Notes: a model not told the origin generated them from the sequence alone. DNA of 64,000 bases from Clostridia bacterium (GCA_045652705.1 JAZRUV010000039.1:2895-66894); one strand, 5' to 3'; shown: positions 6,569 through 34,817, counted from the first letter of the stretch. Numbers and translations are program-made.

Positions 6569-6686
6569 ATGGTATATTGAACAACTCATTTAATAACAAA
6601 ATTACAAATGTTTTATTTTTTCTATAAAACATATTGTGATTTTTCTTTTTTTAGTATACACTTGAAAGTGTAAAATGGGGGGACAA

Positions 6687-7907
6687 ATGAAAACAGGTAA
6701 AAAAGATGCAGTAAGTTTAATAGTATTAGTAATAACAATTATTATTATGATAATATTGGCGGGGCAAATAATACTTTCTTTAAATAATGTAAGTATAATA
6801 GACAAAGCTAATGAGGCAACGCTTAAATCGGATTTGCAACATATAAGACAAGCTATTGTAATGGAGAAATTAGAAAGTAGCGCAGATGAAAGAACGCCAA
6901 ATTATAATAGTATAATACCTGAGAAATATAAAGAAAAAATTATAGTGTTGGCTGACGAACGTATGTTATATATATGTAAGCCAAACACGGAAGAGGGAAG
7001 GATTGCACGTGAGGCTGGCTTTATAGTAATTGAAAAAACAGTACTGCCTATAATGAATACAGTTGAAAAAATACAAGCGGTGGCTGAAGAATATGTTGCT
7101 TCTGGAAACTCTACATCAGACGCAAGTTTGTTGGTCGTTCAGTATATAAGAAATTTGAGTTATAGTGGAACAACTTGGACTACTGTGGCGGGCGCGGTTG
7201 ATGCAAATTTTGTACAACATGTTAATAGAAGGTTGGGAATGACAAGCGCGCAAGTAAAACAAGAAATAAAGGAATTAAATGATCCAATAACAGGAGAAAA
7301 GATAGACTTTATTCATGCAATAGCGTCGCTAAATGGCTATATGTACAATACACAAAGTTCCCAAACTAAGAAGATTTTAGCGGAATATTCTGCTTGGGCA
7401 GGAGATTTGTGTACACTGATGGAACAAGTGGTTAATTATGCTTCGTCAAAATCATATAGCTCGCCATATACAGAGCAAGCTAAAAAAGATATAGAAAATT
7501 ATATAGATAGTATGTTGGGGACTAAAAATGAAAGTTCTACATTTGGAATGGCAGATATGTTGGCGGATGCGGATGCTGTTGCAATGTATAATATGATTTT
7601 AGAAGGAAAAACAATAAGCGAAACAATATATGATTACTATTGCGGAGACTATAATTGCAAAAATAGATATAACATATTTGCGGACTATCTATTAGATTTA
7701 TCTACAAATGCACTAGCGGTAAATACTGTTACAAAAGTGACAGAGCCTAAAGAAAAAGTAGCATATTTGTTTATGGGAAAAACAAATGTATTGTATACGG
7801 GTTACGCAGCAGCTATAACGAGTGTAGGAACAGTTACTTCACTTCCTGAGGAATTGTGTGGCATTATTGCCAATAAGTTTTCTCAATATATAGAAAATAA
7901 TATATAA
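6687..7907 (+). CDS. Hypothetical protein with a pilin-like N-terminal hydrophobic helix
   Basis: 'KKDAVSLIVLVITIIIMIILAGQIILSL..IIDKANEATLKSDL' resembles a type IV pilin or pseudopilin N-terminus but lacks the canonical G-F-T-L-x-E. An alternative upstream ATG lies at 6675. Confidence 0.5.
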   Translation: MKTGKKDAVSLIVLVITIIIMIILAGQIILSLNNVSIIDKANEATLKSDLQHIRQAIVMEKLESSADERTPNYNSIIPEKYKEKIIVLADERMLYICKPNTEEGRIAREAGFIVIEKTVLPIMNTVEKIQAVAEEYVASGNSTSDASLLVVQYIRNLSYSGTTWTTVAGAVDANFVQHVNRRLGMTSAQVKQEIKELNDPITGEKIDFIHAIASLNGYMYNTQSSQTKKILAEYSAWAGDLCTLMEQVVNYASSKSYSSPYTEQAKKDIENYIDSMLGTKNESSTFGMADMLADADAVAMYNMILEGKTISETIYDYYCGDYNCKNRYNIFADYLLDLSTNALAVNTVTKVTEPKEKVAYLFMGKTNVLYTGYAAAITSVGTVTSLPEELCGIIANKFSQYIENNI

Positions 7908-8027
7908 ATATTTGGTGGGGCGTTTCAGCCTCGCTAAATATTTATATGTTCAAATAAAAAGCAAGTAGACTGTGGATACAGATATATATTAAATGTGATT
8001 TTGAAATAAAAAGATTGGAGAAGAATA

Positions 8028-8501
8028 ATGCAAGTGCAGGAAAGATTTATGAAAGAAGCAATAAAGGAAGCTATAAAAGCAAAGAAAATAGATGAAGTGC
8101 CTATAGGAGCTGTTATTGTAAAAGAAGATAAAATTATATCTAGAGGACACAATTTGCGTGAAAGTAGACAGAACAGTTTAAAACATGCTGAAATAATTGC
8201 TATAGATAGGGCGTGCAAAAAACTAAATAACTTTAGGTTAGAGGATTGTGATTTGTATGTAACAGTTGAGCCGTGTTTAATGTGTTCGGGAGCCATAGTT
8301 CAATCGAGGATTAGAAAAGTGTATTTCGGTGCTTGCGATGAGAAGTATGGAGCTGTAACTAGCGTGGCTAATGCTTTTGATATTAAGTCCAACCACAAGG
8401 TAGAATTTGAGCAAGGAATTTGCAAAGATGAGTGTGAAGGGTTAATGAAAGACTTTTTTAAGGAGCTTAGAAAAAGGAAAAAAGAGTGTAAGAATAATTG
8501 A
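8028..8501 (+). CDS. tadA: tRNA-specific adenosine deaminase
   Basis: The CDA zinc motifs 'HAE' and 'PCLMCSGA' are present, and the size and sequence are typical of TadA. Confidence 0.9.
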   Translation: MQVQERFMKEAIKEAIKAKKIDEVPIGAVIVKEDKIISRGHNLRESRQNSLKHAEIIAIDRACKKLNNFRLEDCDLYVTVEPCLMCSGAIVQSRIRKVYFGACDEKYGAVTSVANAFDIKSNHKVEFEQGICKDECEGLMKDFFKELRKRKKECKNN

Positions 8502-8515
8502 TTTAAATAACAATA

Positions 8516-8545
8516 AAACCATTCTTTTACAGAATGGTTTTGTTT
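8516..8545. terminator. Hairpin plus T-tract between tadA and the tRNA remnant (can act on both strands)
   Basis: AAACCATTCT / AGAATGGTTT stem followed by TGTTT. Confidence 0.55.
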
Positions 8546-8591
8546 GGTGCACCAAAAGGGACTCGAACCCCCAACCTTCAGATTCGTAGTC
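8545..8591 (-). pseudogene. 3' half of a disrupted tRNA-Arg(ACG): anticodon loop to CCA; island attL side
   Basis: The reverse complement is GACTACGAATCTGAAGGTTGGGGGTTCGAGTCCCTTTTGGTGCACCA. Its acceptor and anticodon-stem strands pair perfectly with the 5' half at 21144-21182. Confidence 0.85.
8583..8591. repeat. att core copy (left), TTCGTAGTC
   Basis: It is identical to 21144-21152 and corresponds to the anticodon loop region of the split tRNA. Confidence 0.8.
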
Positions 8592-8844
8592 GTACACCAA
8601 GCGTCAAAATAAGTATATCATTAAGCACTAGAAAAATCAAGCAAAAACGATACAAGCATTGAAAATACTGCGAAAAATCTTATTACCTTTGATAAAACAA
8701 AAATTTATTTTAATTTAAAAAAATATAAAAAAGTTTAAATTAGTTTAAGAAAAATTACAAAAATTGGGGTAAAATTGGGGTATAGTATAAGCAAATAAAT
8801 TTTATTCCCCAATTTTGGGAAAGGTAAATCAAAGGTAAAAATAT

Positions 8845-9198
8845 ATGGAAAAAATAAAACCAAGTTACTATGCAATAATACCTGCAAAGGTAAGGTATGA
8901 TGAAAATCTAAATAATGGACAAAAATTGTTATATGGTGAAATAACAGCACTAACAAATAAGAAAGGATATTGTTTTGCAGGAAACAAATATTTCGCAAGA
9001 TTATATAATTGTGATCCAAACACAATATCTAGATGGATAAGCACCCTTGTTAAGGAGGGATATCTAGAAGTAAAGATAGTAAAAAATAGTGAAGATTCAA
9101 AAAGAAAGATATACATATTAGATAATAGCAGACCAACTCGTAAGAAAAATATAGACGATGAACTAGACTATAATGATTATATAGATGTTGGATATTAA
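8845..9198 (+). CDS. Helix-turn-helix protein typical of Firmicutes mobile elements (replication-initiator / DnaD-N-terminal-like HTH)
   Basis: 'YYAIIPAKVRYDENL..GQKLLYGEITALTNKKGYCFAGNKYFARLYNCDPNTISRWISTLVKEGYL' is a winged-HTH pattern common at the N-terminus of element replication proteins. Confidence 0.55.
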   Translation: MEKIKPSYYAIIPAKVRYDENLNNGQKLLYGEITALTNKKGYCFAGNKYFARLYNCDPNTISRWISTLVKEGYLEVKIVKNSEDSKRKIYILDNSRPTRKKNIDDELDYNDYIDVGY

Positions 9199-9208
9199 TA
9201 TATGACTT

Positions 9209-9297
9209 CTATACAAAATTGTAGAGAGGGTATTATCAAAAATGACTATAGGTACTCTACAAAAATGTAGAGAAGGTATCTACAAAATTGTAGCATA
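9209..9297. repeat. Three iteron-like 25-bp repeats (CTAYACAAAAWTGTAGAGARGGTAT)
   Basis: The copies lie at 9209-9233, 9255-9279 (22/25 identical) and 9278-9297 (partial). Each contains the inverted repeat CTACA-N4-TGTAG. Confidence 0.7.
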
Positions 9298-9468
9298 TAA
9301 TAATATAAATTAAATATTATAAATTATTATTACAAGTTATTATATTAACAAAAATGTATTTTGAGAAAAATGTAGAATTTAGATAAATTTGGACTACAAC
9401 TCCAGATTTCTCTAAAAAGTACTAGACAGAATATTATTTTTGTGTTACACTTGTTTTGAGGTGTTAAG

Positions 9469-10740
9469 ATGGAAAAATATAGAGCAAGAACAATAGAAAA
9501 GAGTTTACAGTCTTTAATAACAAAATTCCCTGTTATAATGGTAACAGGACCAAGACAAGTTGGAAAAACAACATTGCTTAATTATATTGCTGTTAACTCT
9601 AATAAAAAAATAAATTATGTGTCTTTAGATAATTTATTGGTAAGACAACAAGCAATAGAAGACCCAGAACTATTTTTAAGAACATATGAAGCTCCAGTAA
9701 TAATAGATGAGTTTCAATATGCTCCTGAACTATTGTCATATATAAAAATAAAGGTAGATGAAGCAAGAAAAAATGCAATGTTTGGTGATGGTAAAGAAGT
9801 AGAGACTATGTATTTCTTAACTGGTTCTCAAGTATTCCAAACTATGGCTAATGTTAGTGAGTCTCTTGCAGGAAGAATGGGTATTTTGGACTTATATGGC
9901 TTTTCTACAAGGGAATTAGAAGGTGTAGAAGAAACAATATTTATTCCAGATGTTAATCTTTTAAAACAAAAAGAAAAAGTAAAAAAATTATCTACTAAAA
10001 AATTGTTTGAAAGAATATTAAACGGAAGTTATCCAGAAGTTGTAAATGGAAAAACAGATGCGGAAAAAACATCAGCATTTTATGAAACATATATTAGAAC
10101 GTATATTGAAAGGGATGTTAGACAATTAATAAATGTAAAAGACGAGACTAAATTTTTAAGATTTATATCGTCTGTTGCAGCGAGAACTGCTCAAGAATAT
10201 AACGTAAGTGATATAGCAACAGACGTAGGAGTAGATAGTAAAACAATTGATGAATGGGTGTCTATTCTTAAAAATACAAATCTTATATATATGTTACAAT
10301 CATACTCTAATAACAATGTTAAAAAAGCAATTAAAAGACCAAAGATATATTTTATGGATACAGGCCTTGCATGTTATTTAACTGGTTACCTAAATGCAGA
10401 GACTCTAGAGAAAAGTGCATACAATGGTGCTATATTTGAAACATATGTAGTTAGTGAAATTATAAAAACATTTACTAACAACGGTATGAGCCCTAGAATG
10501 AGACTATATTATTATCGAGACAGCAATGCTAAAGAAATAGATTTATTAATTATTTATGATAACAAAGTATATCCTGTAGAAATAAAGAAAAGTGCAAACC
10601 CTGGAAAAACTGCCTTCAAAAACTTTGATGTTGTGGATAAGTTTGGTCTAGAAGTAGGAGATGGAATCGTACTTTGTATGATAGATGAAATATTTGCAGT
10701 AGAAGAAAACAAATATTTTGTTCCTATAGAGTATATTTAA
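9469..10740 (+). CDS. AAA+ ATPase of the DUF4143-containing family
   Basis: Walker A is 'VTGPRQVGKTTLL' and Walker B is 'VIIDEFQ'. The C-terminal region 'YYRDSNAKEIDLLI...VYPVEIK' is typical of the AAA_14/DUF4143 architecture. Confidence 0.75.
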   Translation: MEKYRARTIEKSLQSLITKFPVIMVTGPRQVGKTTLLNYIAVNSNKKINYVSLDNLLVRQQAIEDPELFLRTYEAPVIIDEFQYAPELLSYIKIKVDEARKNAMFGDGKEVETMYFLTGSQVFQTMANVSESLAGRMGILDLYGFSTRELEGVEETIFIPDVNLLKQKEKVKKLSTKKLFERILNGSYPEVVNGKTDAEKTSAFYETYIRTYIERDVRQLINVKDETKFLRFISSVAARTAQEYNVSDIATDVGVDSKTIDEWVSILKNTNLIYMLQSYSNNNVKKAIKRPKIYFMDTGLACYLTGYLNAETLEKSAYNGAIFETYVVSEIIKTFTNNGMSPRMRLYYYRDSNAKEIDLLIIYDNKVYPVEIKKSANPGKTAFKNFDVVDKFGLEVGDGIVLCMIDEIFAVEENKYFVPIEYI

Positions 10741-10764
10741 AAAAATTAATTGTGAGGTAAAACT

Positions 10765-11256
10765 ATGTCAAAAGGTGATTCGAATTCTAAATTAAGATAC
10801 AATATACATGAACGAATGCAAGAATTTTTTGATGATGTAATTTTAAAAAGAGGATTGAACTATTTCTATGAAGAAAGAGTTCAAGATGTTTGTAGAGTAA
10901 AAGGAGATTTTTATTCTACAGTAGAAGGTACATACCCATATACTATAAAAATACAAATTAAAAATAACGACATTGAAGAAATGTATTGTGATTGTCCTTA
11001 TGCAGAAGAAGGTTGCTATTGTAAACATATGGCGGCGACTTTAATATATATCGAACAAAATTTAGAAAATATACTTACAGATAAAGACATAGAAAAACAA
11101 ATTGCAAAAAGAACAAAAGAAATTGAGAAGCATTTAAGTAATATTTCCGAGCAACAATTAAGACAATACATAGCAGATATTGCTTTAGACAATGAAAATA
11201 TATATAGCGATTTAAGAACAATGAGCACAATGAATAATTTTCACATAGTAAAATAG
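10765..11256 (+). CDS. SWIM zinc-finger protein
   Basis: 'CDCPYAEEGCYCKHMAA' fits the CxCx(n)CxH SWIM signature. It lies 24 nt downstream of the ATPase gene. Confidence 0.65.
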   Translation: MSKGDSNSKLRYNIHERMQEFFDDVILKRGLNYFYEERVQDVCRVKGDFYSTVEGTYPYTIKIQIKNNDIEEMYCDCPYAEEGCYCKHMAATLIYIEQNLENILTDKDIEKQIAKRTKEIEKHLSNISEQQLRQYIADIALDNENIYSDLRTMSTMNNFHIVK

Positions 11257-11353
11257 AAAAAATAACAAACAACAGTAACTCTAATTTTAAACAAGAGATA
11301 CTGTTGTTTGGCTTATATGTAGTATTTGACTTAAAATAACCAACTTGGTCATC

Positions 11354-11393
11354 GTATTACAAATGTAATACAAAATTGAAATTGTAATACAAG
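11354..11393. promoter_or_regulatory. Candidate operator: palindrome GTATTACA-AA-TGTAATAC plus a third TGTAATACAA half-site
   Basis: The palindrome is seen directly at 11354-11371 and the half-site at 11384-11393. Confidence 0.35.
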
Positions 11394-11589
11394 TTTAGTG
11401 GCTGTGCCTCTAAGATGCGCGTCAATGTGTCTTACATCTATTCCTGCATTAAGTGAGAAATAAGCCTAATAATACAGATAAATATATGTTTTTGCGTAAA
11501 CAGAGTGAACATTAATAAAACATATAAATAAGATGAAAAGGTATATGTAATGAAATAAAAATCAATGGTGAAAAACACACTATCTATAG

Positions 11590-11618
11590 TTGCAAAAAAA
11601 TGTTGTTTATGATATATA
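11590..11618 (+). promoter_or_regulatory. Sigma-A type promoter of the cargo operon (TTGCAA - 17 nt - TATATA)
   Basis: The -35 is at 11590-11595 and the -10 at 11613-11618, about 45 nt upstream of the ATG at 11663. Confidence 0.45.
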
Positions 11619-11662
11619 TCATATGAGTAAGTGTATCTAGAAACATGAACAAAGGAGTATTT

Positions 11663-12346
11663 ATGAATTTAATACAAAAGATTAAGCAAATATTTAGTTT
11701 TAATAAGACAAAACAACTTGAAGCACCTAAAGAAATACCGATAAAAGTAGATAAGCCTAAAATAAACCTTTTCGAAGACTTAAGCAAACAAACAATAGAC
11801 TTAACAAAGGAAGAAAAATTAAAACAAATATTAAAAACGGCGGGATGCAAAAAAGAAATTTTTTGGCGTGTAGATGATTTAGAAAATATAGATGCAGATA
11901 ATTTAAGAGAAGTATTGAAACTATTAAGTAGTATAAAATTAACAAAATATGAACTAAATGTTGTTTTAGGACAAAATATAGAATTATTAAATACAAATTA
12001 TATATTTATAGATGCTAACATACAAATATTAAAAGAATATCTAAAAGATGAAATCGTATTAAAGAACATTATATATACAAATCCTTTTGTTTTAACTAAC
12101 AGAATAGAAACGGTAATATTAAATGTAAAAGATAGATTTGATAATATAGGTTTATCGCAAAAAGAACAAATAAATATACTAGATGAAAACTCAAACATAC
12201 TTTCATTAGATATAGAAGTGTTAAATCAAAGTATAAATATAATAAAACAATATTATTTAGCAGATGCTAAAAAAATTATATTAGAAGATCCTAATATAAT
12301 AGGAATAACAGATATAAATGTATTAAGAGGTTATATCGAAAATTAA
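11663..12346 (+). CDS. Hypothetical helical-repeat protein (mTERF-like impression), cargo gene 1
   Basis: SD AAGGAG lies 5 nt upstream of the ATG at 11663; the ORF track start at 11645 lacks an SD. It shows repeated roughly 30-aa units such as 'TNPFVLTNRIETVILNV', 'ENSNILSLDIEVLNQSI' and 'EDPNIIGITDINVL'. Confidence 0.55.
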   Translation: MNLIQKIKQIFSFNKTKQLEAPKEIPIKVDKPKINLFEDLSKQTIDLTKEEKLKQILKTAGCKKEIFWRVDDLENIDADNLREVLKLLSSIKLTKYELNVVLGQNIELLNTNYIFIDANIQILKEYLKDEIVLKNIIYTNPFVLTNRIETVILNVKDRFDNIGLSQKEQINILDENSNILSLDIEVLNQSINIIKQYYLADAKKIILEDPNIIGITDINVLRGYIEN

Positions 12347-12356
12347 GAGGTATTAT

Positions 12357-13145
12357 ATGGATGAACAAGCAAAGTTAATGCTTTATAGACAACTACAAGA
12401 AATGAGTGAATTAAATCAAAAAGAAAACGCAGCATCACTTATTTCTGAACAAGAGTTTTTAGCATTATCAGCTAAAGAAGCATTAAAATACACATTTGAA
12501 TATAGAGATAGAGAAACAGATTTTGGCGAAAATATTTACTATTTAGAAATGCCAGATATGGATTTTTCAGGTCAAGATTTAAGTGATGTTCGTATTAGTA
12601 AGTTTATGCTTTCTCGTATGGAAGATGGTAAAAGAGTACCAAGTAAAATAAATGTAAATGGTACAAGAATAGCAATAAACCTAAATGGAATAGGAATAAG
12701 TGAGCAGTCACAAGATGAGTTGGGGATTTCAGACCAAGTTATAGATTTTAGCAATGTGGATTTTAGAGGCTGTGAAATAAGAGGTATATTACCTGACGAA
12801 TATGCAGAAGAAACAAAAGCAAAAACAAGAGGACAAATAACTGTAACAGGAAGAGAAAATCTAGATGAAAGATATTTACAAAGAAGGAAAGAACATCACC
12901 TTATGCCGGGCGAAAGAAAAGTTACAGAAAGAGCATATGCAAGACTACTTTCAGGTGAAACATTAAAAGGAACTAGAGACCAAGATAGAATAGACTTTAC
13001 AGATTATGACTTGGAAGGTTTATCTGAAGAACAAATAAGATATCTAATGGATAAGAAAGAAATAACATTAGACACATATCAAATAGAGTCAAATAGTGAT
13101 TATGTATCACAGTATAGAAAGCGGACAATTAAGAGAAGAAAGTAG
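12357..13145 (+). CDS. Hypothetical protein with pentapeptide-repeat-like stretches, cargo gene 2
   Basis: SD GAGGT is present. The stretches are 'MDFSGQDLSDVRIS' and 'IDFSNVDFRGCEIRG'. It lies 10 nt after gene 1. Confidence 0.55.
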   Translation: MDEQAKLMLYRQLQEMSELNQKENAASLISEQEFLALSAKEALKYTFEYRDRETDFGENIYYLEMPDMDFSGQDLSDVRISKFMLSRMEDGKRVPSKINVNGTRIAINLNGIGISEQSQDELGISDQVIDFSNVDFRGCEIRGILPDEYAEETKAKTRGQITVTGRENLDERYLQRRKEHHLMPGERKVTERAYARLLSGETLKGTRDQDRIDFTDYDLEGLSEEQIRYLMDKKEITLDTYQIESNSDYVSQYRKRTIKRRK

Positions 13146-14592
13146 AAGAAGGATAATATATGAATATGAGAAAGGAAATGCTACATATTTTAGTCAACAT
13201 ATCGATGAATTAGATGCTTGGACACGAGGAGAGGTATTTGAAGAAGTATTACTAATGGCATCCGAAAGAGAGGATATAGAGTTTTTAAAACAATACTTTT
13301 GTGAAGCTGGTTACATACATGGTTTACAAGATCAAATAATAATAAAAGCATATAAATCAGGAGATATAGAATTCGCACAGCAACATTTTGATGAAATTGG
13401 TCTTGCGGGAGGTTGGCCGTTGCAAAGGCAAATAATGATGACTTCCTATGAAAGAGGAGATATAGAATTTGTAGAAGAATACATTAATCGAGTTCATTTT
13501 GAGATCCGAGGGGAAATACTAAAAACAGCCTATGAGAAAGAAGATATGACATTTGTAGAACGACATCTCTCACATACTGACAGTCATACAAGGCTTGAGT
13601 TAGCAATAGCCGAAAGAAAAAAGGGAAAAAATGAACTAGTAAGAAAACTATTAATGGTAGAAAATAGTAAAAAGGAGCAACAAGGGAAAAAGACAGTATC
13701 TTGTTCAGGAAAAATGTTGAATGAAGCATTGTCTCAAGGAAAAATAGATAAAGATTTTATTATAGTATTAATAAGGTTAGGTTCTGGTTTAGACTACGTT
13801 GCTTATAATAATGTTGATGGTTCAACACCCGAATACATACCAACACTATATAAAGCCTTAAAATTAGAAGATGCTACTGTTAGAAAAGAAATTATAACAG
13901 AAATGTTAAAATCAGGAGTAAGTATTGATTCTAAATATGTAGCAAGAACGTATCATTGGGACAAAAGTGTTGAAAAAACAGAGATTCACTGCTTAGATGC
14001 AAATAATGGTGAATTAGTTCAAATAATGAGTGAGTTAGGTATGGAAGTGCCACAGGAAAAGCAAAATATAACCGCACCTAAAAGAGGGGAAAAGCAACCT
14101 AAAGAGCAAAAGCAAGATAATAGAGTTTTAGTTTGTGACTTCTTAACTCACGAGGTAGGATTAAATGAAGAAGAAATTAAAAAACTAGAAACTACATATA
14201 GGGGTTGGGGAAGAGATTTATATAGTCTATCAACAGAAAGACTTGGTATGCAAAAAGCAATTTTGGATTCAGTTGGTGGTACAAAAAGAGCATTTACAAC
14301 AGATGCTAAAGTATTAAATAATGACCCACAAGTTTTATATTCAAGACTAATGTTTTATAGAGAAAGTGGTATAACTGTGATGCCAGACAGATTATATACA
14401 ACATTAGGAATATCTAAAAAAGGATTTGCTAAAAATTTCGGAAGTAGAGTTTTAGAAAAAGGAAATATGGAAGATTCGGATTATGAATATAAACTAAAAC
14501 AAGAACTACTAAAAAGATACCCAATGCCAGAAACTAGAGATGAACTAAAGAGAACATTGGAAGAATTGAATAAAGAAGAAATTGGAGGATAG
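13102..14592 (+). CDS. Hypothetical multi-repeat protein, cargo gene 3
   Basis: It has four to five tandem roughly 32-aa repeats 'Y(E/K)xGDIEFxxx(H/Y)(F/I)': 'KSGDIEFAQQHF', 'ERGDIEFVEEYI', 'EKEDMTFVERHL' and 'EREDIEFLKQYF'. The C-terminus has mTERF-like 'LGLNEEEIKKL', 'DPQVLYSRL' and 'LGISKKGF'. The start is uncertain (GTG 13096 or ATG 13102). Confidence 0.55.
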   Translation: MYHSIESGQLREESRRRIIYEYEKGNATYFSQHIDELDAWTRGEVFEEVLLMASEREDIEFLKQYFCEAGYIHGLQDQIIIKAYKSGDIEFAQQHFDEIGLAGGWPLQRQIMMTSYERGDIEFVEEYINRVHFEIRGEILKTAYEKEDMTFVERHLSHTDSHTRLELAIAERKKGKNELVRKLLMVENSKKEQQGKKTVSCSGKMLNEALSQGKIDKDFIIVLIRLGSGLDYVAYNNVDGSTPEYIPTLYKALKLEDATVRKEIITEMLKSGVSIDSKYVARTYHWDKSVEKTEIHCLDANNGELVQIMSELGMEVPQEKQNITAPKRGEKQPKEQKQDNRVLVCDFLTHEVGLNEEEIKKLETTYRGWGRDLYSLSTERLGMQKAILDSVGGTKRAFTTDAKVLNNDPQVLYSRLMFYRESGITVMPDRLYTTLGISKKGFAKNFGSRVLEKGNMEDSDYEYKLKQELLKRYPMPETRDELKRTLEELNKEEIGG

Positions 14593-14596
14593 ATTT

Positions 14597-15400
14597 ATGC
14601 CATTATATAGTAAAAAAGAGCCATATCGTTCTATGTTAGAAGAATTAGAAGAAGAAAGAGCGTTTACTTTCAAAGGCTCATATATATTAGATGCAGATGA
14701 AAAAATGGGACAAGCAAGTAAAGAACTAGAAAGAATAATAAATAAAAATACTAAAGGTAAATTGCCACCAGGTTTATCTAAAGAAGAAACACAACGAGAA
14801 ATGGAAAGATTATCTACAGGTATAATAGATAGATTAAGAAGTGCAAACGGAAAGTTCAAAGCGTTTGTTTATTCTAAAGGTGGCTCTAGAACTTCTGCAA
14901 ACGAAGCACAACAAACAGAATTATCACAAAAAGGTGCAAACGTGGAATATACAGTTATGGTGGTAAATGGTGTAGCAATATTAGAGCCGTTAGGACAAGA
15001 GGATAATGCTACATATATAGCAGAAGAAAGGGAAGGTCTAGAAGAAGCAATAACTCAATTTGGCAGAGGTGAGGCTATAGATAGCGGAATAATCCAAAAA
15101 GTAATTCACGATAGAAAAGAAAGAGAAGGATACAACTATGGTTCTAACCATATATTACAATTATTAGATTATGCTATTGACGATCCACAGAGACTATTAC
15201 AAGTTGTTAGAGAGCATAATGGTTGTGGGCTAAAGAGAATATCTCAAAATATGCCTACTACAGTTGATGCTATTCATTCGCAAACAGATTCAAGAGTTGA
15301 TGAAATGGGAATTAGTGCTGAAGAAACAATAAAAGCAGGAACAGAATTGGAAAGAACACAAGAAATAAAAGGAAAGGAGACTCCTTATGAAAGTGTATAA
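14597..15400 (+). CDS. Hypothetical acidic protein, cargo gene 4
   Basis: SD GGAGGA lies 8 nt upstream of the ATG at 14597. It starts 4 nt after the gene 3 stop. No motif was recognised. Confidence 0.55.
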   Translation: MPLYSKKEPYRSMLEELEEERAFTFKGSYILDADEKMGQASKELERIINKNTKGKLPPGLSKEETQREMERLSTGIIDRLRSANGKFKAFVYSKGGSRTSANEAQQTELSQKGANVEYTVMVVNGVAILEPLGQEDNATYIAEEREGLEEAITQFGRGEAIDSGIIQKVIHDRKEREGYNYGSNHILQLLDYAIDDPQRLLQVVREHNGCGLKRISQNMPTTVDAIHSQTDSRVDEMGISAEETIKAGTELERTQEIKGKETPYESV

Positions 15401-15620
15401 TGATGAAGAGATAATAGGACTATGTGAGGCTTATCAAGTATATCAAATACTTCCAGAAGATTCACAAAGAAAAATTCCTAAAGAGTTTGTTGAAGAAATG
15501 GAAAAGTATGCTAAATACGATGTAGGCGTAACAATAAATTGCCCTTTGGATATAGGAACTGAAAAACTATCAAGAGAAGGTGTTAAAAGAATAGCATATA
15601 TGTGCTTATTCTTGAAATAG
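15387..15620 (+). CDS. Small hypothetical protein, cargo gene 5
   Basis: SD AGGAGA is present, and the gene overlaps gene 4 by 14 nt. Confidence 0.5.
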   Translation: MKVYNDEEIIGLCEAYQVYQILPEDSQRKIPKEFVEEMEKYAKYDVGVTINCPLDIGTEKLSREGVKRIAYMCLFLK

Positions 15621-15692
15621 GGGCTGACACATAGTAGAAAAAGATATAAGGTATAAATAAAAAATAATTTATAAATTTAAGGAGGTTATATT

Positions 15693-16301
15693 ATGGGATT
15701 TATAGATGATTTACAAAAAAATGTTAAGAGTGAAGAGGATATTGTAGGACATGTAGATAAAGACTTAGAAGACTTAAAAGGATTAGAAGTGGGTTCTTGC
15801 TTACACGAAGATTGGAGACAAACAAGAAGAAATGAAGACGGTACATATGAACCAAGATGGAAAAAGGTTAAAGACCCTAATTTCAAATTTGTTGAATCTG
15901 ATACTTGCAGAAAAACAGAGGAAGGTGTAGTCGAAATAGACATTGCTAACAGAAGTTTTGGTGAGTTATCTGCAGATTGGCAATTTGAAAATTTAGAAGC
16001 GGGAAAAGTTGTTGCTAGATTAGTTGGTGACAAAACTGAATTGACGCCAGAAGAAGTAGAACAAATGGCAAGTGAAATACACGATGAATGGTTAAAAAGA
16101 AATGATTGGGTATTTGATCCAAACTACGGAAACCCAGCTCAAGCAGTTCCTTATGCAGAACTTAGCGAAGAAGAAAAGGAAAAGGACAGAGCTCAATTAA
16201 AATTCGGCTTATCTCTAAATCAAAGATTGCTTTCAGGAGAAGTAAAAAAACAAGATCTAAAAGAGAAATTTAAATCTAACGAAGAACAAGTGGTAGAATA
16301 A
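15693..16301 (+). CDS. Hypothetical protein with RyR-domain-like modules, cargo gene 6
   Basis: A strong SD AAGGAGG is present. 'LHEDWRQTRR' and 'IHDEWLKRNDWVFDPNYGNPAQAVPYAELSEEEKEKDR' resemble the bacterial RyR-domain consensus (HxxW...YG...PY.eLseeeKe.DR). Confidence 0.5.
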   Translation: MGFIDDLQKNVKSEEDIVGHVDKDLEDLKGLEVGSCLHEDWRQTRRNEDGTYEPRWKKVKDPNFKFVESDTCRKTEEGVVEIDIANRSFGELSADWQFENLEAGKVVARLVGDKTELTPEEVEQMASEIHDEWLKRNDWVFDPNYGNPAQAVPYAELSEEEKEKDRAQLKFGLSLNQRLLSGEVKKQDLKEKFKSNEEQVVE

Positions 16302-16308
16302 ATTATAT

Positions 16309-16345
16309 TAGCGAGTTAAGTAAAAATTAACTCGCTATTTACTTT
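16309..16345 (+). terminator. Rho-independent terminator of the cargo operon
   Basis: TAGCGAGTTAA / TTAACTCGCTA stem followed by a T-rich tail. Confidence 0.65.
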
Positions 16346-16392
16346 CTGCAATTAAATATTATATAATTTAATCATTAAACGAAGGAGGAATT

Positions 16393-17673
16393 ATGAGAAA
16401 GAATAAATATAACGAATTGTCTTCTACAATAATGTTAATAATAGGATTAATATGTATTGTATTTGGAACTGTAGTTCAATTTTTATTAAAAGATACAAGA
16501 GATGTTTTAAGCTATACTATTACCTATGTGGGTAAATATATGATTTTTGCAGGTATCGTTTCCTCATTATTAAGCATTATTACAAAAATTGCTCGTATAT
16601 CTAGGGATAATACAATAATGAACTTAAAATCATCAGGCAAACTTGTTTATGCCACTAATTTAAAAGTATGGAAAAATTACTATTGGGGCGTAGATAGAAA
16701 ACATTGGTGTCATCTTTTGGTAGAATGGGAAGATCCTATTACTCATCAAAAGTATGAATTTAGAAGTGACAAATTATGGGTTGATATTGAGCCTATAATT
16801 GCAGATAAAAAAATCGAAAAGATACCTGTTTATATTGATAATAAGAATCCAAAAGTTTATTTTGTTGATGTAGATGAGCTAACTCCATCAAACACTTCTG
16901 AGAAAAAGAATAAAAAAAGTATTGTTGGTAACATTATTCTTATCATAGTTACAATAATTGTATTATCTACATTAGGAATTTTTGCTATTTTGAAATTCGC
17001 TCCAAACAATTCAACACTTGACGCTCAATTGCCAAATAGTAACGAACAGAGAATTCCTAACGAACTAGAAGAAAATGAGTGTGCTCCATTTATTTGTTAT
17101 GATGGTATTAGTGATATACAGAGTAAAGATTTAATACCTAAAGCCAATCAAATAAATAAAAATTTGCGTAGATTGTTAGTTCTTATAAGTTTAGGCGATT
17201 GGGAAAGTGGCGAATATACATTACAAGATATCGACAAGTTTGCATTACACTCTTTAATAGCAAACAGACTTTTTGATGAAGAAGATTATTTAATACTAGA
17301 AAACGGTATAGATAATGCAGCTCTTTCATCTCAAGATTACGAAAATATATTTGAACAAATAACAGGGATTACAGATGTTAAAGCTTATTTTGAAAACTAT
17401 TCATTAGAAAAAACTAAAGATGCTAACAAATCTGTATATATGGAAGATGATGATAAAACTTATTATATTGTTCCTTTTGGTGTAGGTATGGAACTCGGTG
17501 TTTATGGCGTTGCGGTAGTATCTGATGTAACTGTACAAAATGATAGAACTTTATTTTCTATTAAAACTTGTATCGTAGATTATGAAAACAATACATATAC
17601 ATATACTAAAACAACTACATTTGAAATTCAAACAAATGGTTTAAGAGTATATAGCTTCAAAGTAGAAAAATAA
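16393..17673 (+). CDS. Membrane protein with a DUF3592-like segment and a large C-terminal soluble domain
   Basis: SD GAAGGAGG is present. Two N-terminal TMs are followed by 'YWGVDRKHWCHLLVEWEDPITHQKYEFRSD...IPVYIDNKNPKVYFVD' (DUF3592-like) and a third TM 'IILIIVTIIVLSTLGIFAIL'. Confidence 0.5.
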   Translation: MRKNKYNELSSTIMLIIGLICIVFGTVVQFLLKDTRDVLSYTITYVGKYMIFAGIVSSLLSIITKIARISRDNTIMNLKSSGKLVYATNLKVWKNYYWGVDRKHWCHLLVEWEDPITHQKYEFRSDKLWVDIEPIIADKKIEKIPVYIDNKNPKVYFVDVDELTPSNTSEKKNKKSIVGNIILIIVTIIVLSTLGIFAILKFAPNNSTLDAQLPNSNEQRIPNELEENECAPFICYDGISDIQSKDLIPKANQINKNLRRLLVLISLGDWESGEYTLQDIDKFALHSLIANRLFDEEDYLILENGIDNAALSSQDYENIFEQITGITDVKAYFENYSLEKTKDANKSVYMEDDDKTYYIVPFGVGMELGVYGVAVVSDVTVQNDRTLFSIKTCIVDYENNTYTYTKTTTFEIQTNGLRVYSFKVEK

Positions 17674-17683
17674 ATATTATATA

Positions 17684-17712
17684 GGGGGATAGAGTTAAAT
17701 CTCTATTCCCCC
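17684..17712. terminator. Bidirectional hairpin between convergent genes
   Basis: GGGGGATAGAG-TTAAAT-CTCTATTCCCCC. Confidence 0.6.
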
Positions 17713-17731
17713 ATTTATTATCATATACAAT

Positions 17732-18703
17732 TTATATAGCATCAATACTTCTGCCATTTGACTCTTGAACAATTTTGCCATCTAAATCTATTTGTTCTTT
17801 AACTAATCCCTGCAACGATGTAAGAAAATCATTTGATTTGTCTTCTTTTTTTCTTGTAAGCTCTCTAGCATTAATTATTGCTTTTTGTTCTGCCTCGTCA
17901 ACTATTTCAGAGAGGCTTTTGCCTGGATTTTCTCTTTTAGCTTTCATCGGATGCATTATCGCATTATATAAATTATCAAAGCTTTGTGATAATTCTTCAA
18001 ACTTTTCGTGACCAAAATATTGCAAATGTTCATCTGTTCCATTTAACTGAGCATTTCTAAGAGCTTTAACCATTTTTTCATTTTGAAGCAAAGCTTGTGC
18101 ACTTTCGTTAAACTTACCAAAATAACTACGAGATATATATTCTCTTCCAAGTATTCTTGACATTATTTTCGATTCATCATCGCAATTAATGGCTTCCTCT
18201 ATACCAGTATGAAATTCTTCTCCATTAGAATATTTGCCAGTTTGTCCATCTTTATCCATATTTGTTTTAGCAATGCCCTCTCTCTTTTTCAGTTTCCCTT
18301 TTTCAACTTGATATTTATTATTATATGACTTTACTAAATGCCCCATTTCATGTACTAAAGTTGCAAGCACTTTCTCGTCATTTAAATCAGTTGAGCACAT
18401 ATATATTAAGTCTTTCGAATAAAATTTTCCGTCTCTATCAATTGGCATACTTTCAGAAAAACCTACTATTGTTGCTGGTATTGCTTGTGCCTCCATATCT
18501 GGAAAATATTCCTGATAATAATTTCTAGCATTTTCTCCGTCCTTTTGTAAATGGATTTCACAATTTGAAATTGCATCTAAAATCGTTTTTTCGTGTTCTT
18601 TTCCAAAATGCTCAATGAATGCTGGGATTATCTTGTGTAATGTCTCCATTAAATCATCGCTATATTCATATTTTTCTTGTAAACCATTAAAATAATCTTC
18701 CAT
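17732..18703 (-). CDS. Hypothetical cytoplasmic protein with a zinc-metalloprotease HExxH motif
   Basis: 'LATLVHEMGHLVKS'. The ATG at 18703 is preferred (AGAAGG lies 7 nt upstream); the ORF could extend to 18751. Confidence 0.5.
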   Translation of the reverse strand: MEDYFNGLQEKYEYSDDLMETLHKIIPAFIEHFGKEHEKTILDAISNCEIHLQKDGENARNYYQEYFPDMEAQAIPATIVGFSESMPIDRDGKFYSKDLIYMCSTDLNDEKVLATLVHEMGHLVKSYNNKYQVEKGKLKKREGIAKTNMDKDGQTGKYSNGEEFHTGIEEAINCDDESKIMSRILGREYISRSYFGKFNESAQALLQNEKMVKALRNAQLNGTDEHLQYFGHEKFEELSQSFDNLYNAIMHPMKAKRENPGKSLSEIVDEAEQKAIINARELTRKKEDKSNDFLTSLQGLVKEQIDLDGKIVQESNGRSIDAI

Positions 18704-18855
18704 TTTAAAACCTTCTTTTAATACACATCTCTTTTTTAATAATTTTACCATAAAATTTTTATATGTCTAGCGTTTCAAAACAAATAAAAGTAATTGGGCA
18801 GTTTAAATACTACTCTTTTATTGTGCCTTAAATTGTAATAATAACAGCTGATTCT

Positions 18856-19235
18856 GTGTGAAATTGTGTAAAAAAGCATTGTTTTTATAAATTTTGTCCG
18901 ATTTTTGATGTTTCAACTGTTTATATAAGTGAAGGGGTAAATAATATAATTTATAAAAAATCAAATAAATTTTTAATATTTTGTCCGACTTTCACTGTTT
19001 CAATCGATAGGGAAGTGAAAGGGTATAAAACTAATTGTAACAAATAAAGAAAATTGTGTTATTTTTATAAATCTTTTAATTATTTATATGTATCAATGAC
19101 TGTTAAGTAATGAAGGGATAGAAAAATTGATACTAAAAACAAAGAAGATTATGTGAAATTTTGTAAAAAGGCATTATTTTTTATAATTTTGTCCGACTTT
19201 TAGTGTTTGAAGGATATATAGGAAGTGAAGGGGTA
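18856..19235. repeat. Four diverged tandem units (period about 85-115 bp) with conserved boxes TTTGTCCGAC and GTGAAGGGGTA
   Basis: Box 1 lies at 18893, 18980 and 19188. Box 2 lies at 18929, 19015, 19110 (degenerate) and 19225. Box 2 starts 35-37 nt after box 1 starts. The outer units 18856-18939 and 19151-19235 are about 80% identical. Confidence 0.7.
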
Positions 19236-19357
19236 CGAAATAAGCAAGGTAAAAAATATATAATTTTTAATTTTCACATTTGTTATTTTTAGTTATATTA
19301 AGTGGACAGATTATTTATATAACAAATCCTTTCAATTTAAGAAGAAGGAGGTATATT

Positions 19358-19546
19358 ATGCAAGACGAAAAGGTATGTATTAGCATTGAGGAAGCAAGAA
19401 AGATGTTAGGCATTGGAAGAAACTTAATGTTAGAACTAATTAAAGTGGATGGATTCCCTTGTATAAGATTTAAGCGAAAAGTAATTATTAATAAGCAAGA
19501 TCTTGAAAAGTGGATTCACGAAAATTACGGCAAATATTATTATTAA
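19358..19546 (+). CDS. Excisionase-family / MerR-like HTH DNA-binding protein
   Basis: SD AGGAGG is present. 'ISIEEARKMLGIGRNLMLELIKVDGFPCIRFKRKVIINKQDLEKWI' is the typical Xis-type HTH_17 pattern. It lies directly upstream of the integrase. Confidence 0.7.
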   Translation: MQDEKVCISIEEARKMLGIGRNLMLELIKVDGFPCIRFKRKVIINKQDLEKWIHENYGKYYY

Positions 19547-19642
19547 AGATTAGACTTTACATATAAAGAGATGTTATAATAACTATGATTTACCTTTCTA
19601 AACGCTAATTTAAACATTTTCTTTATATTAGGAGGGATTGTT

Positions 19643-20924
19643 ATGAAGAAGATGAAAGAAAGGGCTAAAAAGGGCACTATAAGCGTTAGAAAAAGAAATA
19701 ATGGTTATGAAGCAAGAATAACTTTAGATATTGATGGTATAAAAAACTATAGATTATCTAGGTTTAGTTCTGTTTCAGAAAAGGAGGCAAAAAGAAAACT
19801 TGGTGAAGCAATAGCTGAGGCTTACATTAGGGCATCACAAGGAAAGGGGTTAAATGAACAAGAAACAAATAGGACATGTTCTAAAAGTTTGAGAAAATTA
19901 AAAGAATATAACAATGAAGATATTACACAAGAAATTATTTCTAAAGCAAAAGAGTGTAATAAGTTTAACAAGGTTGCTTTTGACTGGTTGGAAAAAAGAA
20001 GACAAGAAACAATGCCTAATAGAGCAAAAAGATTAAGCAGTAAAACTTTTGAACAATATGTATATAATGTTAAGTCTAATTTAATACCTACGTTTGGAGA
20101 ATACTTAATAAATGAAATTACCAAAGATATGTTTCAAAATTATATAGATAATAGAAATGCACCTAAAATGGCAAGGGATAATTACATTACGATGAAACAA
20201 ATAATGGACTTTGCAAGAGGGCAAAATTTAATTAGTATTAATCCTATTGTAGATATTGTGTTACCACCAAAGAGAAGAAAAGTGATTAGTTATTTAACAT
20301 CTGAAGAACAAGTAAAGTGGTTAGATTGTGCCGAGCAAGATGGTAGAGATTGGGCACTCATCTTTGCTACCATAATTCAAACTGGTATGAGACCAGAAGA
20401 ACGGTTGCGGCTTGAAATGGAAGTGTGTAAATTTTAAAGATGAGACTATATGTGTAGAAAATGCATATAAAGAGATTCAAATATTTGATGAGAACTTTAA
20501 TGCTATTGGATATAAAAAGGCAGATAGTAGTCTTAAAACTAAAGAAAGTTATAGAATTATACCAATGTCGCCAAGGTTATTTAAAATGTTAATTAAGTTA
20601 AAAGAAAGCAAAAAAGAAAAGGCAAAAAGGAATAATGTAAGGTGGTCAGATGAGGAATATGTTTTTCTAAATGAAAACGGAGGACCTTATGTATCTGAAA
20701 GATTAACAAATAAAATACCAGCATTTATTAAAAAGTACAAATTGGGGAAAGTAACTTTATATGGTTTAAGGCATAGTTTTGCAACATTATGCAGTGAAAG
20801 AGGTGTACCTGATATTGTGTTAAAAGAACTAATGGGGCACTCTGACTCATCTACAACAAAGAAGTATTATATACATGTTACATTAACAAGAAAAAGAGAA
20901 GAAATTAATAAAATTTGGGGATAA
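19643..20924 (+). pseudogene. int: Tyrosine recombinase (phage-type integrase) interrupted by one frameshift near 20399-20412
   Basis: ORF 19643-20437 ends '...TGMRPEERLRLEMEVCKF*'. The +1 frame continues '(NGCG)LKWKCVNFKDETI...' through 'GLRHSFAT', 'GHSD' and 'KKYYIHV' (catalytic R, H-x-x-R, H, Y). Confidence 0.8.
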
Positions 20925-20960
20925 AAAATACAGCCTTCTGTAAACTAAAAGCTGTATAAG

Positions 20961-21037
20961 TGGTGCGGCAGAAGGGATTTGAACCCCCAACCGACGGATT
21001 CGTAGTCCGTTACTCTATCCAATTGAGCTACTGCCGC
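20961..21037 (-). tRNA. tRNA-Arg(ACG), complete, carried inside the island
   Basis: The reverse complement is GCGGCAGTAGCTCAATTGGATAGAGTAACGGACTACGAATCCGTCGGTTGGGGGTTCAAATCCCTTCTGCCGCACCA. It forms a full cloverleaf with anticodon loop CUACGAA and an encoded CCA. Confidence 0.9.
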
Positions 21038-21143
21038 ATATATTAAATTGTATTTTAGTTTTTTGGGGTAAAACTGGGGAATGAAAAATTCCCAGACCCT
21101 GAAAAACAGCATTATCAATAGGTATAAGGTTTTGAGCGTTCGT

Positions 21144-21152
21144 TTCGTAGTC
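21144..21152. repeat. att core copy (right), TTCGTAGTC
   Basis: It is identical to 8583-8591. Confidence 0.8.
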
Positions 21153-21182
21153 TGACGCTCTATCCAGTTGAGCTATTGGTGC
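21144..21182 (-). pseudogene. 5' half of the disrupted host tRNA-Arg(ACG); island attR side
   Basis: The reverse complement is GCACCAATAGCTCAACTGGATAGAGCGTCAGACTACGAA (acceptor, D-arm, anticodon stem and loop). tRNA structure stops after that point. Confidence 0.85.
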
Positions 21183-21193
21183 TTGCGAAAATT

Positions 21194-21222
21194 ATTATAC
21201 ACTACCAAAAGAAAAAAATCAA
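21194..21222 (-). promoter_or_regulatory. Promoter of the (now split) host tRNA-Arg(ACG): TTGATT - 17 nt - TATAAT
   Basis: On the minus strand the -35 is at 21222-21217 and the -10 at 21199-21194, about 12 nt upstream of the tRNA 5' end at 21182. Confidence 0.55.
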
Positions 21223-21344: not shown

Positions 21345-21367
21345 ATAATATATTTGGAGGTGTTTAT

Positions 21368-21676
21368 ATGAAAACTTTTAATAAACTGGTAAGAGATAGA
21401 ATTCCCGAGATAATCCGTACCAAGGGGGAAACGCCCCTAGTGAGAATTTTAGGTGATGAAGAATACGAAAATGAGCTTAGCAAAAAGCTGCAAGAAGAAG
21501 TTAATGAATATTTAGCGGATGGAAATATAGAAGAACTTGCAGATATTGAAGAAGTGTTAAGGGCTCTTGTTGCACTAAAAGGTGTGCCTTATGAAGATTT
21601 TGATAAGATGCGTGAGAAAAAGTGTGAACAAAGAGGAGCGTTTAAAGACAGAGTGTTCCTTGAGAGTACAAATTAA
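21368..21676 (+). CDS. MazG-like / phosphoribosyl-ATP pyrophosphohydrolase-like NTP pyrophosphatase
   Basis: SD GGAGG lies 7 nt upstream of the ATG at 21368. 'KLVRDRIPEII...EE..EYL......EELADIEEVL.AL' is the all-alpha NTP-PPase pattern. The ORF track start at 21317 lies inside the tRNA. Confidence 0.6.
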   Translation: MKTFNKLVRDRIPEIIRTKGETPLVRILGDEEYENELSKKLQEEVNEYLADGNIEELADIEEVLRALVALKGVPYEDFDKMREKKCEQRGAFKDRVFLESTN

Positions 21677-21802
21677 ATGTGAAGAAGCGTATGTGTGCCA
21701 TACGCTTCTTTTAAAACATATAGCCGTTTTAAAAAGTATAGCTACTGGTGTATAGTTATAATATATAAATATACGCACTAAGCGTTGGTTTTTGGAGGTA
21801 AT

Positions 21803-34669: not shown

Positions 34670-34675
34670 TACTAA

Positions 34676-34768
34676 AGTCGCTTTGGCAATAGCGAGTTTG
34701 TGAACCTTGTCAGGTCCGGAAGGAAGCAGCAATAAGCAAATGATGCTATGTGCCGTGGGCGACCTTTT
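34676..34768 (+). ncRNA. ffs: Signal recognition particle RNA, short (4.5S-like) form
   Basis: It contains the universally conserved domain IV sequence GTCAGGTCCGGAAGGAAGCAGC. The closing helix is GTCGC...GCGAC, followed by a T-tract. The position upstream of dnaX is the classical one in Firmicutes. Confidence 0.8.
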
Positions 34769-34817
34769 TGTATATATAGCATTTGTAGTAAGATTATTAA
34801 ATATAAGGGGTTAAAAT

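Follow-up and report, generated by a model that had tools for sequence, protein, structure and literature searches.

An integrative island of gut Clostridia very probably disrupts a host tRNA-Arg(ACG) gene and replaces it with a copy of its own

An island that enters a tRNA gene in the anticodon loop raises the question of which gene supplies the tRNA afterwards. We addressed this question for a stretch of 64,000 nt from a Clostridia bacterium (GCA_045652705.1, JAZRUV010000039.1:2895-66894), which is called the window here and whose positions serve as coordinates throughout. A preliminary description of the window had proposed that a tRNA-Arg(ACG) gene is split by an acquired island. In the following, the split host gene is named tRNA-A, and an intact tRNA-Arg(ACG) gene that is borne by the island is named tRNA-B. 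Our results supported that description as correct but incomplete, since it misses tRNA-B, the junctions that do not regenerate a tRNA, and an extra base that is conserved in the integrase gene. We concluded that positions 8592-21143 very probably represent a site-specific island that disrupts tRNA-Arg(ACG) and replaces it.

The 5' half of tRNA-A lies on the minus strand at 21182->21144 (GCACCAATAGCTCAACTGGATAGAGCGTCAGACTACGAA). It forms the attL junction and comprises the acceptor 5' strand, the D arm, and the 5' strand of the anticodon stem with the loop, including a copy of the core at 21144-21152. The 3' half, on the minus strand at 8591->8545 (GACTACGAATCTGAAGGTTGGGGGTTCGAGTCCCTTTTGGTGCACCA), forms the attR junction and consists of the anticodon loop, the 3' strand of the anticodon stem, the variable loop, the T arm, the acceptor 3' strand, and CCA. 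Both sequences stand in the window as they had been quoted. When the halves were merged through their 9-nt overlap, a check that the preliminary description had named, ARAGORN scored the 77-mer as tRNA-Arg(acg), with a perfect acceptor stem of 7 bp and a fully paired anticodon stem of 5 bp. Each half alone with its flanks gave no tRNA in ARAGORN. The overlap is the 9-bp core TTCGTAGTC (plus strand), which had been recognized as a direct repeat and att core at both junctions (8583-8591 and 21144-21152); in the attR copy, it spans the 7-nt anticodon loop and two stem nucleotides. A third copy, located at 20999-21007 and overlooked before, is the anticodon loop of tRNA-B. By chance, 0.24 copies of the core are expected per window.

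An empty site with an intact tRNA, which had been suggested as a further check in related genomes, was found. The 44-nt 3' half of tRNA-A was scanned over one genome per species, and three contigs of Clostridia metagenome-assembled genomes (MAGs) were obtained (L001, L002, and L003). In L002 (JAZKXT010000010.1), tRNA-A is uninterrupted; the gene is 1 nt (in the D loop) off the in-silico join, and its 3' half is identical. It adjoins the same divergent tRNA-Arg(CCT) as in the window, and both flanks of the contig are collinear with those of the window, through tadA and the genes upstream of it on the left side and through HTH_3 and Gate on the right side. The contigs L001 and L003 carry an island end of the window type, with 91-93% identity, before their 3' half of tRNA-A. 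Since the empty site is syntenic and the island end is shared by the other two contigs, the segment 8592-21143 is an insertion with exact limits, as had been claimed. The integrated island, limited by the two cores and missing at the syntenic site of L002, is 12,552 bp long (12,561 bp from core to core). Its foreign origin, also part of the earlier claim, is supported by the empty site in L002 and by a synonymous divergence of its genes below that of the host genes, which is described below. Base composition was no marker of the island, with 27-33% GC compared to 30-35% in the flanks.

The intact gene tRNA-B is located at 20961-21037 (minus strand), where it was detected by ARAGORN and scored 68 bits against the Rfam tRNA family. 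It lies 106 nt inside the attL junction, adjoining the integrase gene. Compared with tRNA-A, 16 of its 77 positions are changed, and compensatory changes are present in both the acceptor stem and the anticodon stem. The 106-nt spacer between the core and tRNA-B (21038-21143, minus strand), which corresponds to the P' arm of attP, contains no tRNA 3' half, promoter-like site, or terminator. Past the attL core (ACGAACGCTCAAAACC...), no anticodon-stem partner, T arm, or acceptor strand was detected by ARAGORN and Rfam, and with the same tools neither attL nor attR rebuilds a tRNA. Integration destroys the host gene, and the island brings along an entire tRNA gene of the same anticodon. The codons read by the ACG tRNA (CGU, CGC, and CGA) represent 97 of the 493 Arg codons in the window.

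The signals around these genes suggest how tRNA-B may be expressed. The host tRNA promoter (21194-21222, minus strand, TTGATT-17-TATAAT) is now directed at the orphan 5' half, the spacer, and then tRNA-B, and no promoter-like or terminator-like site was found between the promoter and tRNA-B. This promoter would read through into tRNA-B, which would amount to a capture of the host promoter by the island. Past tRNA-B, a terminator hairpin is located before the integrase stop codon (20928-20957, minus strand), and the intrinsic terminator of the host tRNA is at 8515-8541 (minus strand). At the distal end of the island, 20 nt from the core, there is an outward promoter-like site (8612-8640, minus strand, TTGATT-17-TATACT, with TG), which is conserved in L001 and L003. 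In a circular form of the island, this site (8640->8612) would take the position of the host promoter and replace it, reading across the core to tRNA-B.

Candidate arm-type sites of the integrase were found on both sides of the core. At the distal end (8765-8811), two copies of TACCCCA lie 11 bp apart on the minus strand (8765-8771 and 8776-8782) and are accompanied by an inverted TTCCCCA (8805-8811), and the spacer on the other side carries TTCCCCA (21075-21081) and TACCCCA (21064-21070). Relative to the core, the paired TWCCCCA repeats, 11 bp apart, are at -191/-180 and +71/+82, with the inverted copy at -220. Of the 20 copies of TWCCCCA in the window, 5 are less than 230 bp from the two cores. 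This layout is as expected for arm-type integrase sites, and the repeats may serve in integrase binding.

The following mechanism is proposed. The integrase and Xis would recombine the island attP, i.e., the 9-bp core between the paired TWCCCCA sites, with the anticodon loop of the host tRNA-Arg(ACG); the structure of the junctions suggests such a recombination of attP and attB. Since attP would share just the core with the tRNA gene, neither junction would be a tRNA, and the host gene would be inactivated. The loss would be compensated by tRNA-B, which is placed between attP and int, downstream of the presumably captured host promoter and upstream of its own terminator. The integrase would be made from two frames joined at GAA-C-GGU, most likely because ribosomes shift by +1 at CGG, a very rare codon.

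The same arrangement was found in a large family of related islands, which is common in gut Clostridia. For the homologue search, the integrase of the window, whose gene is interrupted by one extra base, was rebuilt by skipping this base, and the homologue alignment then retrieved 80 metagenomic loci, mostly from human gut. Nearly all of the 80 loci have a minus-strand tRNA 100-230 bp past the integrase stop codon, which is Arg(ACG) with the closer integrases and Lys(CTT) with those more distant; two loci have Arg(CCT) at this position. The informative loci numbered 65 (64 and the window), namely 42 Arg(ACG) including the window, 22 Lys(CTT), and 1 Arg(CCT), and most of the others were cut by contig ends. 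All 65 have a split 5' half, a spacer of 106-224 nt, an intact tRNA of the same anticodon, and then int. The split 5' halves end at the anticodon loop, where element DNA follows, and their own promoter is usually present. A single element type adjoins up to four different host 5' halves, which indicates that the family moves between hosts. Both ends were captured in L016 (10,446 bp), L020 (7,673 bp), and the window, and the element sizes range from 6.7 to 12.6 kb.

The tRNAs of the elements have kept their structure. Among 18 distinct element tRNA-Arg(ACG) sequences, 378 of 378 cells were paired, and 15 of the 21 pairs had changed on both sides, while no shuffle or slide control came near the observed pairing. 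Because the cloverleaf is fully kept with compensatory changes, the element tRNAs are working genes and not relics. One long locus, L015, is the only one without a split 5' half upstream; the acceptor stem of its int-side tRNA (8586-8662) has two G-U pairs (GTGCCTG / CGGGTAC), and this tRNA could be explained as a hybrid in which two different tRNA-Arg(ACG) genes have recombined within the anticodon loop. In L099, past the intact integrase P0002, a run of N lies by a partial tRNA-like T arm (about 2600-2700) on the strand opposite to all others, and the arrangement is unreadable.

L006 and L008 contain a y-core-x junction whose y side matches, at 91% identity, the DNA directly inside the L016 attR, and the two contigs therefore represent attP (circular) or tandem junctions. 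The split 5' half belongs to a tRNA of the element type, with element spacer before it, in L024, L033, L036, L043, and L081, which indicates that incoming elements target the tRNA of a resident element. Some Lys(CTT) elements have a degenerate 3' half past the core, with a preserved T arm, a disrupted anticodon stem, and no CCA, and the full tRNA lies about 120 bp further on. Degenerate 3' halves are present in L046, L052, L053, L055-L058, L061-L066, and L088, and each of them, when combined with the host 5' half, is still scored by ARAGORN as another tRNA-Lys. The degenerate half looks like a classical tRNA-restoring attP that decays once a complete tRNA has been acquired, which is among the scenarios discussed by Guerrero-Bustamante and Hatfull (PMC10865867).

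The tyrosine integrase that had been noted at the right end of the island is present, though its reading frame is broken by a 1-nt insertion. The gene comprises 1282 nt (19643-20924, plus strand), in which codons 1-253 are in frame 0 (19643-20401), an extra C follows at 20402, and the remainder (20403-20924) continues in the +1 frame; it appears as two open reading frames (ORFs), 19643-20437 and 20412-20924. The Pfam domains Phage_int_SAM_3, Phage_int_M, and Phage_integrase were recognized. In an alignment of the integrase with 24 homologues, 54 columns were invariant, including the R of GMRPEE, the R and H of YGLRHS, and the H and Y near the C-terminus. Intact relatives read GAA GAA GGN TGT, compared to GAA GAA C GGT TGC in the window, where one C is added. 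The 30-nt frameshift site is GAGACCAGAAGAACGGTTGCGGCTTGAAATG. The same 1282-nt two-frame gene was found in six independent assemblies, i.e., the window, L004 (1484-2765), L093 (10001-11282), L094 (10001-11282), L095 (9569-10850), and L096 (6034-7315).

The selection on the two frames was then compared among the six copies. The ratio of nonsynonymous to synonymous divergence (dN/dS) was 0.05-0.18 in the first part (frame 0) and 0.02-0.11 in the second part (+1 frame), and the wrong-frame control, in which the second part was read in frame 0, gave a dN/dS above 1.8. In the 57 codons from the extra C to the first ATG, 14 of the 17 variable sites were third positions of the +1 frame, and the corresponding ratio for polymorphic sites (pN/pS) was 0.04. 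A second lineage, P0089 (L097, about 2315; L098, about 1643), has the identical site GAAGAA-C-GGTTGCGG, after which the +1 frame is open, integrase-like, and without a start codon. This lineage shares just 49% identity with the N-terminal part of the window integrase and 66% with the intact integrase P0002. An explanation of the break by a pseudogene or an erroneous assembly was rejected, because the same extra base occurs in six assemblies and in the second lineage under strong purifying selection.

At the break, frame 0 reads CGG, which is used less than any other Arg codon (2 of 493 in the host ORFs of the window) and is the sole CGN codon in the integrase. Since six copies and a second lineage have the extra C in common, purifying selection is strong in both reading frames, and the island postdates the divergence of its hosts, a programmed +1 frameshift is probable, with a chance that we estimated as slightly better than even. 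The best reading places it at a hungry CGG codon, with GAA-CGG-U read as GAA-GGU. Programmed +1 frameshifting is known in the prfB/RF2 type and in hungry-codon shifting of the Ty3 type. The integrase resembles such cases in its conserved break position, in the purifying selection on both frames, and in a very rare CGG in the A site. Unlike them, it has no slippery codon of the CUU-U type, no upstream stimulator similar to a Shine-Dalgarno (SD) sequence, and no stop codon at the site.

The integrase might also be formed without a frameshift, either as two polypeptides, a DNA-binding one of 264 amino acids (aa) and a catalytic one of 170 aa, or by supply in trans from related elements. A TTG start opens the second ORF in the window, which would allow the former, and many related integrases coexist in gut communities, which would allow the latter. 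However, this TTG is TTA in L094, L095, and the P0089 lineage, and the 57 codons after the extra C are still under purifying selection. The break also parts the first catalytic Arg (GMRPEE) from the remaining catalytic domain, and a supply in trans would not preserve both halves. We consider such an origin of the enzyme unlikely, and a two-subunit integrase is the weaker alternative to the frameshift.

The genes between the two ends were examined with PHROG, PADLOC, and Pfam, and 7 of the 10 largest island proteins remained without a confident function. Near the distal end, a gene that is conserved in the island lineage encodes an HTH_36 protein of 117 aa (8845-9198, plus strand), which resembles replication initiators of phages and plasmids over their first approximately 100 residues. 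A cargo gene follows, which encodes an AAA_14/DUF4143 ATPase (9469-10740, plus strand) and matches the PADLOC candidate defence family PDC-S01 (E 3e-109). The variable cargo at 10765-18751 includes one SWIM-finger and one mTERF-like protein, an HExxH protein (17732-18751, minus strand), and several proteins that match no family. The xis-like gene of the preliminary description was identified at the right end and encodes an excisionase-like HTH_17 protein of 62 aa (19358-19546, plus strand).

Sister islands, which are otherwise 91-95% identical, keep both ends and differ in their cargo, which includes Abi_2, RloB together with AAA_15/AAA_21, a metallophosphatase, an exonuclease of the RNase_T type, and an ABC/SMC-like ATPase. 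The sites of this mostly defence-like cargo are 8266-9246 in L093, 5465-7526 in L094, 3335-5396 and 6061-8673 in L095, and 2954-5162 in L096. The conserved ends behave as a carrier for exchangeable, mostly defence-like genes. In relatives that are more distant, the cargo comprises radical-SAM/SPASM genes or an AAA ATPase next to a subtilase.

From its gene content, the element was treated as a putative small integrative cargo island and not as a prophage. A prophage, or a helper-packaged satellite similar to the phage-inducible chromosomal islands (PICIs), would show tRNA-dependent lysogeny in the strict sense. The mechanism does match the phage paradigm, the replication-initiator-like HTH_36 gene matches PHROG families, and both the sizes (6.7-12.6 kb) and the position of int and xis at a single end resemble those of satellites. 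But no PHROG match to capsid, tail, terminase, lysis, or packaging functions was obtained in the island, and the Pfam matches obtained for the cargo genes covered in relatives are all non-structural (radical SAM, methyltransferase, subtilase, AAA ATPase, Abi_2, and RloB). Furthermore, no close relatives were found in the 2.9 million contigs of IMG/VR, where a scan with the integrase profile gave merely 4 distant matches (25-33% identity) without the tRNA architecture. The best tblastn match of the integrase in the 50,697 records of GenBank phages was 26% identical, and a megablast of the whole island against the PLSDB plasmids gave no match. An origin from a known phage or plasmid was rejected on these database results, and we regard a prophage or satellite as quite unlikely.

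To date the window lineage relative to its hosts, five more copies of the island with the same architecture (L004, L093-L096) were compared with that of the window. All six copies are located in the same tRNA of related hosts, whose rpoBC are 91-96% identical. The synonymous divergence (dS) was 0.11-0.23 for int and about 0.10 for xis, compared to 0.23-0.42 for rpoB and 0.4 to saturation (about 3) for the HTH_3 and Gate genes in the same genome pairs. Since the dS of the island is below that of the host, the island is younger than the host split. Moreover, the non-coding ends of the island are about 5% divergent, compared to 18% for the host flank just outside attL. The orphan halves of tRNA-A (76 nt; 8545-8591 and 21153-21182 in the window against L093-L096) had no substitutions in ten pairwise comparisons, and this would be explained only by recent integrations or by regular re-formation of the gene through excision. 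Recent independent integrations, or continuing excision and re-integration, would fit the data, while an ancient fixed relic would not.

A decaying relic would imply one ancestral integration that was inherited vertically, an integrase killed by the frameshift, and a tRNA-B that is now the gene of the host. The broken reading frame of the integrase, the presence of the six copies at one locus in related hosts, and a rep-like gene that seems truncated speak for such a history. However, both halves of the integrase have a low dN/dS (0.02-0.18) though all copies have the extra C, and the same frameshift site is present in a lineage that is just 49% identical. The lower dS of int and xis than of rpoB and the neighbouring genes, and the orphan halves that stayed free of substitutions while the host flank and the non-coding island DNA diverged, also argue against it. 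In L096, an older adjacent island has left a remnant on the left of the tRNA-A 3' half (1120-1278), with an island-type terminator, the last approximately 75 nt of an integrase gene, and a PDC-S01 gene, which also speaks against the relic. In our view, the relic is very unlikely.

There is virtually no chance of a classical tRNA-targeting island (Williams / Islander), in which a copy of the tRNA 3' part on the island regenerates a functional tRNA at the integrase-proximal junction and the intact tRNA-Arg(ACG) beside the integrase would be the regenerated host gene. At first sight, this intact tRNA and the displaced 3' fragment at the far end agree with the model. However, the displaced 3' half does not pair with the 5' end of tRNA-B (GCGGCAG vs TTGGTGC) but pairs perfectly with the orphan 5' half 106 nt further out, the gene at the empty site of L002 equals the 5' half plus the 3' half and not tRNA-B, the model does not apply because the sequence past the attL core is not tRNA-like, and the orphan 5' half at 21144-21182 refutes it.

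Several observations weigh against disruption and replacement of the host tRNA gene by an active island. No attP junction of the window's own lineage was found, the exact core-plus-spacer scan of IMG/VR being empty, and no direct evidence of excision of the window island was obtained. Relaxase or packaging genes were not recognized in the island by PHROG, PADLOC, and Pfam, and the six copies share one target tRNA in related hosts, as described above. From its retention across the family, tRNA-B may be needed for viability. As for the frameshift, the site has no slippery P-site codon, since GAA cannot re-pair in the +1 frame, and no SD-like motif, and its RNA structure was not significant (folding z-score of -1.15).

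The kind of mechanism proposed here is known from phages. tRNA-dependent lysogeny was described in actinobacteriophages (Fionnbharth/K4, Cluster L, Gaia, and Gordonia CQ2/DL) by Guerrero-Bustamante and Hatfull (mBio 2024, PMC10865867). The experimental recognition of an integration that both destroys and replaces a tRNA gene dates only from 2024 and is confined to these phages. In these systems, a tyrosine integrase uses an attB in a tRNA gene with a core so short (8-17 bp) that no tRNA is regenerated, and the phage carries a same-isotype tRNA, which was shown by experiment to be required for viable integration (PMC10865867). The occurrence of the strategy beyond actinobacteriophages and its evolutionary relation to classical sites were left as questions (PMC10865867). 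The window element is alike in its tyrosine integrase with candidate arm-type sites around attP, its attB in a tRNA gene, its short core of 9 bp, the lack of a tRNA at attL and attR, and a carried tRNA with the anticodon of the target. Judged by sequence, it would qualify in every respect as a case of tRNA-dependent lysogeny, and it does not appear to be a phage.

There are also differences between the two groups. Unlike the actinophages, the window element belongs to a non-phage family of 6.7-12.6 kb without structural genes, with defence-like cargo and with gut Clostridia as hosts. The tRNA is fixed between attP and int in the Clostridia islands, whereas in Fionnbharth it is elsewhere in the genome, overlapping gene 37. 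In the sampled integrase clade the trait is universal and tracks the target switches (Arg-ACG, Lys-CTT, and Arg-CCT), whereas it is patchy in actinophages. Moreover, the Clostridia elements insert into each other's tRNAs, and the integrase of the window lineage would need a +1 frameshift. The requirement for the carried tRNA is experimental in actinophages, whereas we infer it in the Clostridia islands.

For tDNA islands, the classification made by Williams in 2002 reportedly includes an anticodon-loop sublocation. The classical tDNA islands (Islander, PMC4383910) resemble the window element in that int lies by the tRNA gene, a 7-nt anticodon-loop crossover lies within a symmetric stem, and a displaced fragment is found at the far end. 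They differ from it in that the sequence of the window island does not restore the target gene, and some Lys(CTT) relatives of the element keep a degenerate 3' half. In the Rhizobium phage vTRX32-1 group, a tRNA-Leu with a 12-bp core is used (PMC8631192), and prophage Lj965 of Lactobacillus johnsonii is an earlier descriptive case, as cited in PMC10865867. These two are alike in that their integration interrupts a tRNA gene at a short repeated sequence and in that they carry an entire tRNA of this type, presumably as a replacement, and unlike in being 40-kb phages. The phage tRNA of vTRX32-1 is without the core motif, which was proposed to prevent super-integration (PMC8631192), whereas the island tRNA keeps the core and serves other elements as a target.

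Compared with the phage cases, the new features would be the non-phage family, the insertion relay, the vestigial 3' halves, and the conserved +1 frameshift of the integrase. We see an even balance for the proposition that the islands go beyond the phage paradigm in two ways, as a whole non-phage clade of cargo islands of gut Firmicutes that lives by the splitting and replacement of an essential tRNA gene in relay, and with a sub-lineage that obtains its integrase solely via a +1 frameshift. If this is true, the working tRNA-Arg, tRNA-Lys, or tRNA-Arg(CCT) of the host would be repeatedly swapped for an element-borne one, and the last island would not be deletable. The frameshift would then be the first such recoding in a tyrosine integrase and, if confirmed, would represent a new class of recoded gene, and the truncated DNA-binding product could regulate recombination. 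Neither this Clostridia family nor a frameshifted tyrosine integrase was found described in the literature searched, where absence is no proof.

At least 65 gut Clostridia loci would place the strategy outside phages and Actinobacteria, where it tracks changes of the target tRNA, and the decaying 3' halves in relatives may represent an erosion of the classical state in elements that already have a full tRNA. Island finders that seek a regenerated tRNA and a long direct repeat would miss or mis-delimit such islands, and tRNA genes annotated as those of the host may be element-borne. Furthermore, the int-attP-tRNA cassette is a possible self-selecting integration vector for gut anaerobes that are hard to manipulate.

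Outside the island, a gene at 8028-8501 (plus strand) encodes a TadA-like tRNA adenosine deaminase (MafB19-deam / dCMP_cyt_deam_1), which is convergent with tRNA-A and lies 44 nt from the tRNA-A 3' end. tRNA-Arg(ACG) is the substrate of bacterial TadA, and in the window the TadA-like gene and the gene of a TadA substrate tRNA are neighbours. In L002, L093, and L094, about 1 kb with an ATP-grasp gene separates tadA from the tRNA. The interval between tadA and the tRNA in L002, about 1.1 kb, is absent in the window, and the window segments 6552-8040 (with an ORF of 410 aa at 6675-7907 without a Pfam match) and 21359-21684 are missing from the syntenic region of L002; the neighbourhood is variable outside the island too. 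Besides the two intact tRNAs, the sole Rfam match in the window was a Bacterial small signal recognition particle (SRP) RNA (RF00169, 65.7 bits) at 34674-34769 (plus strand).

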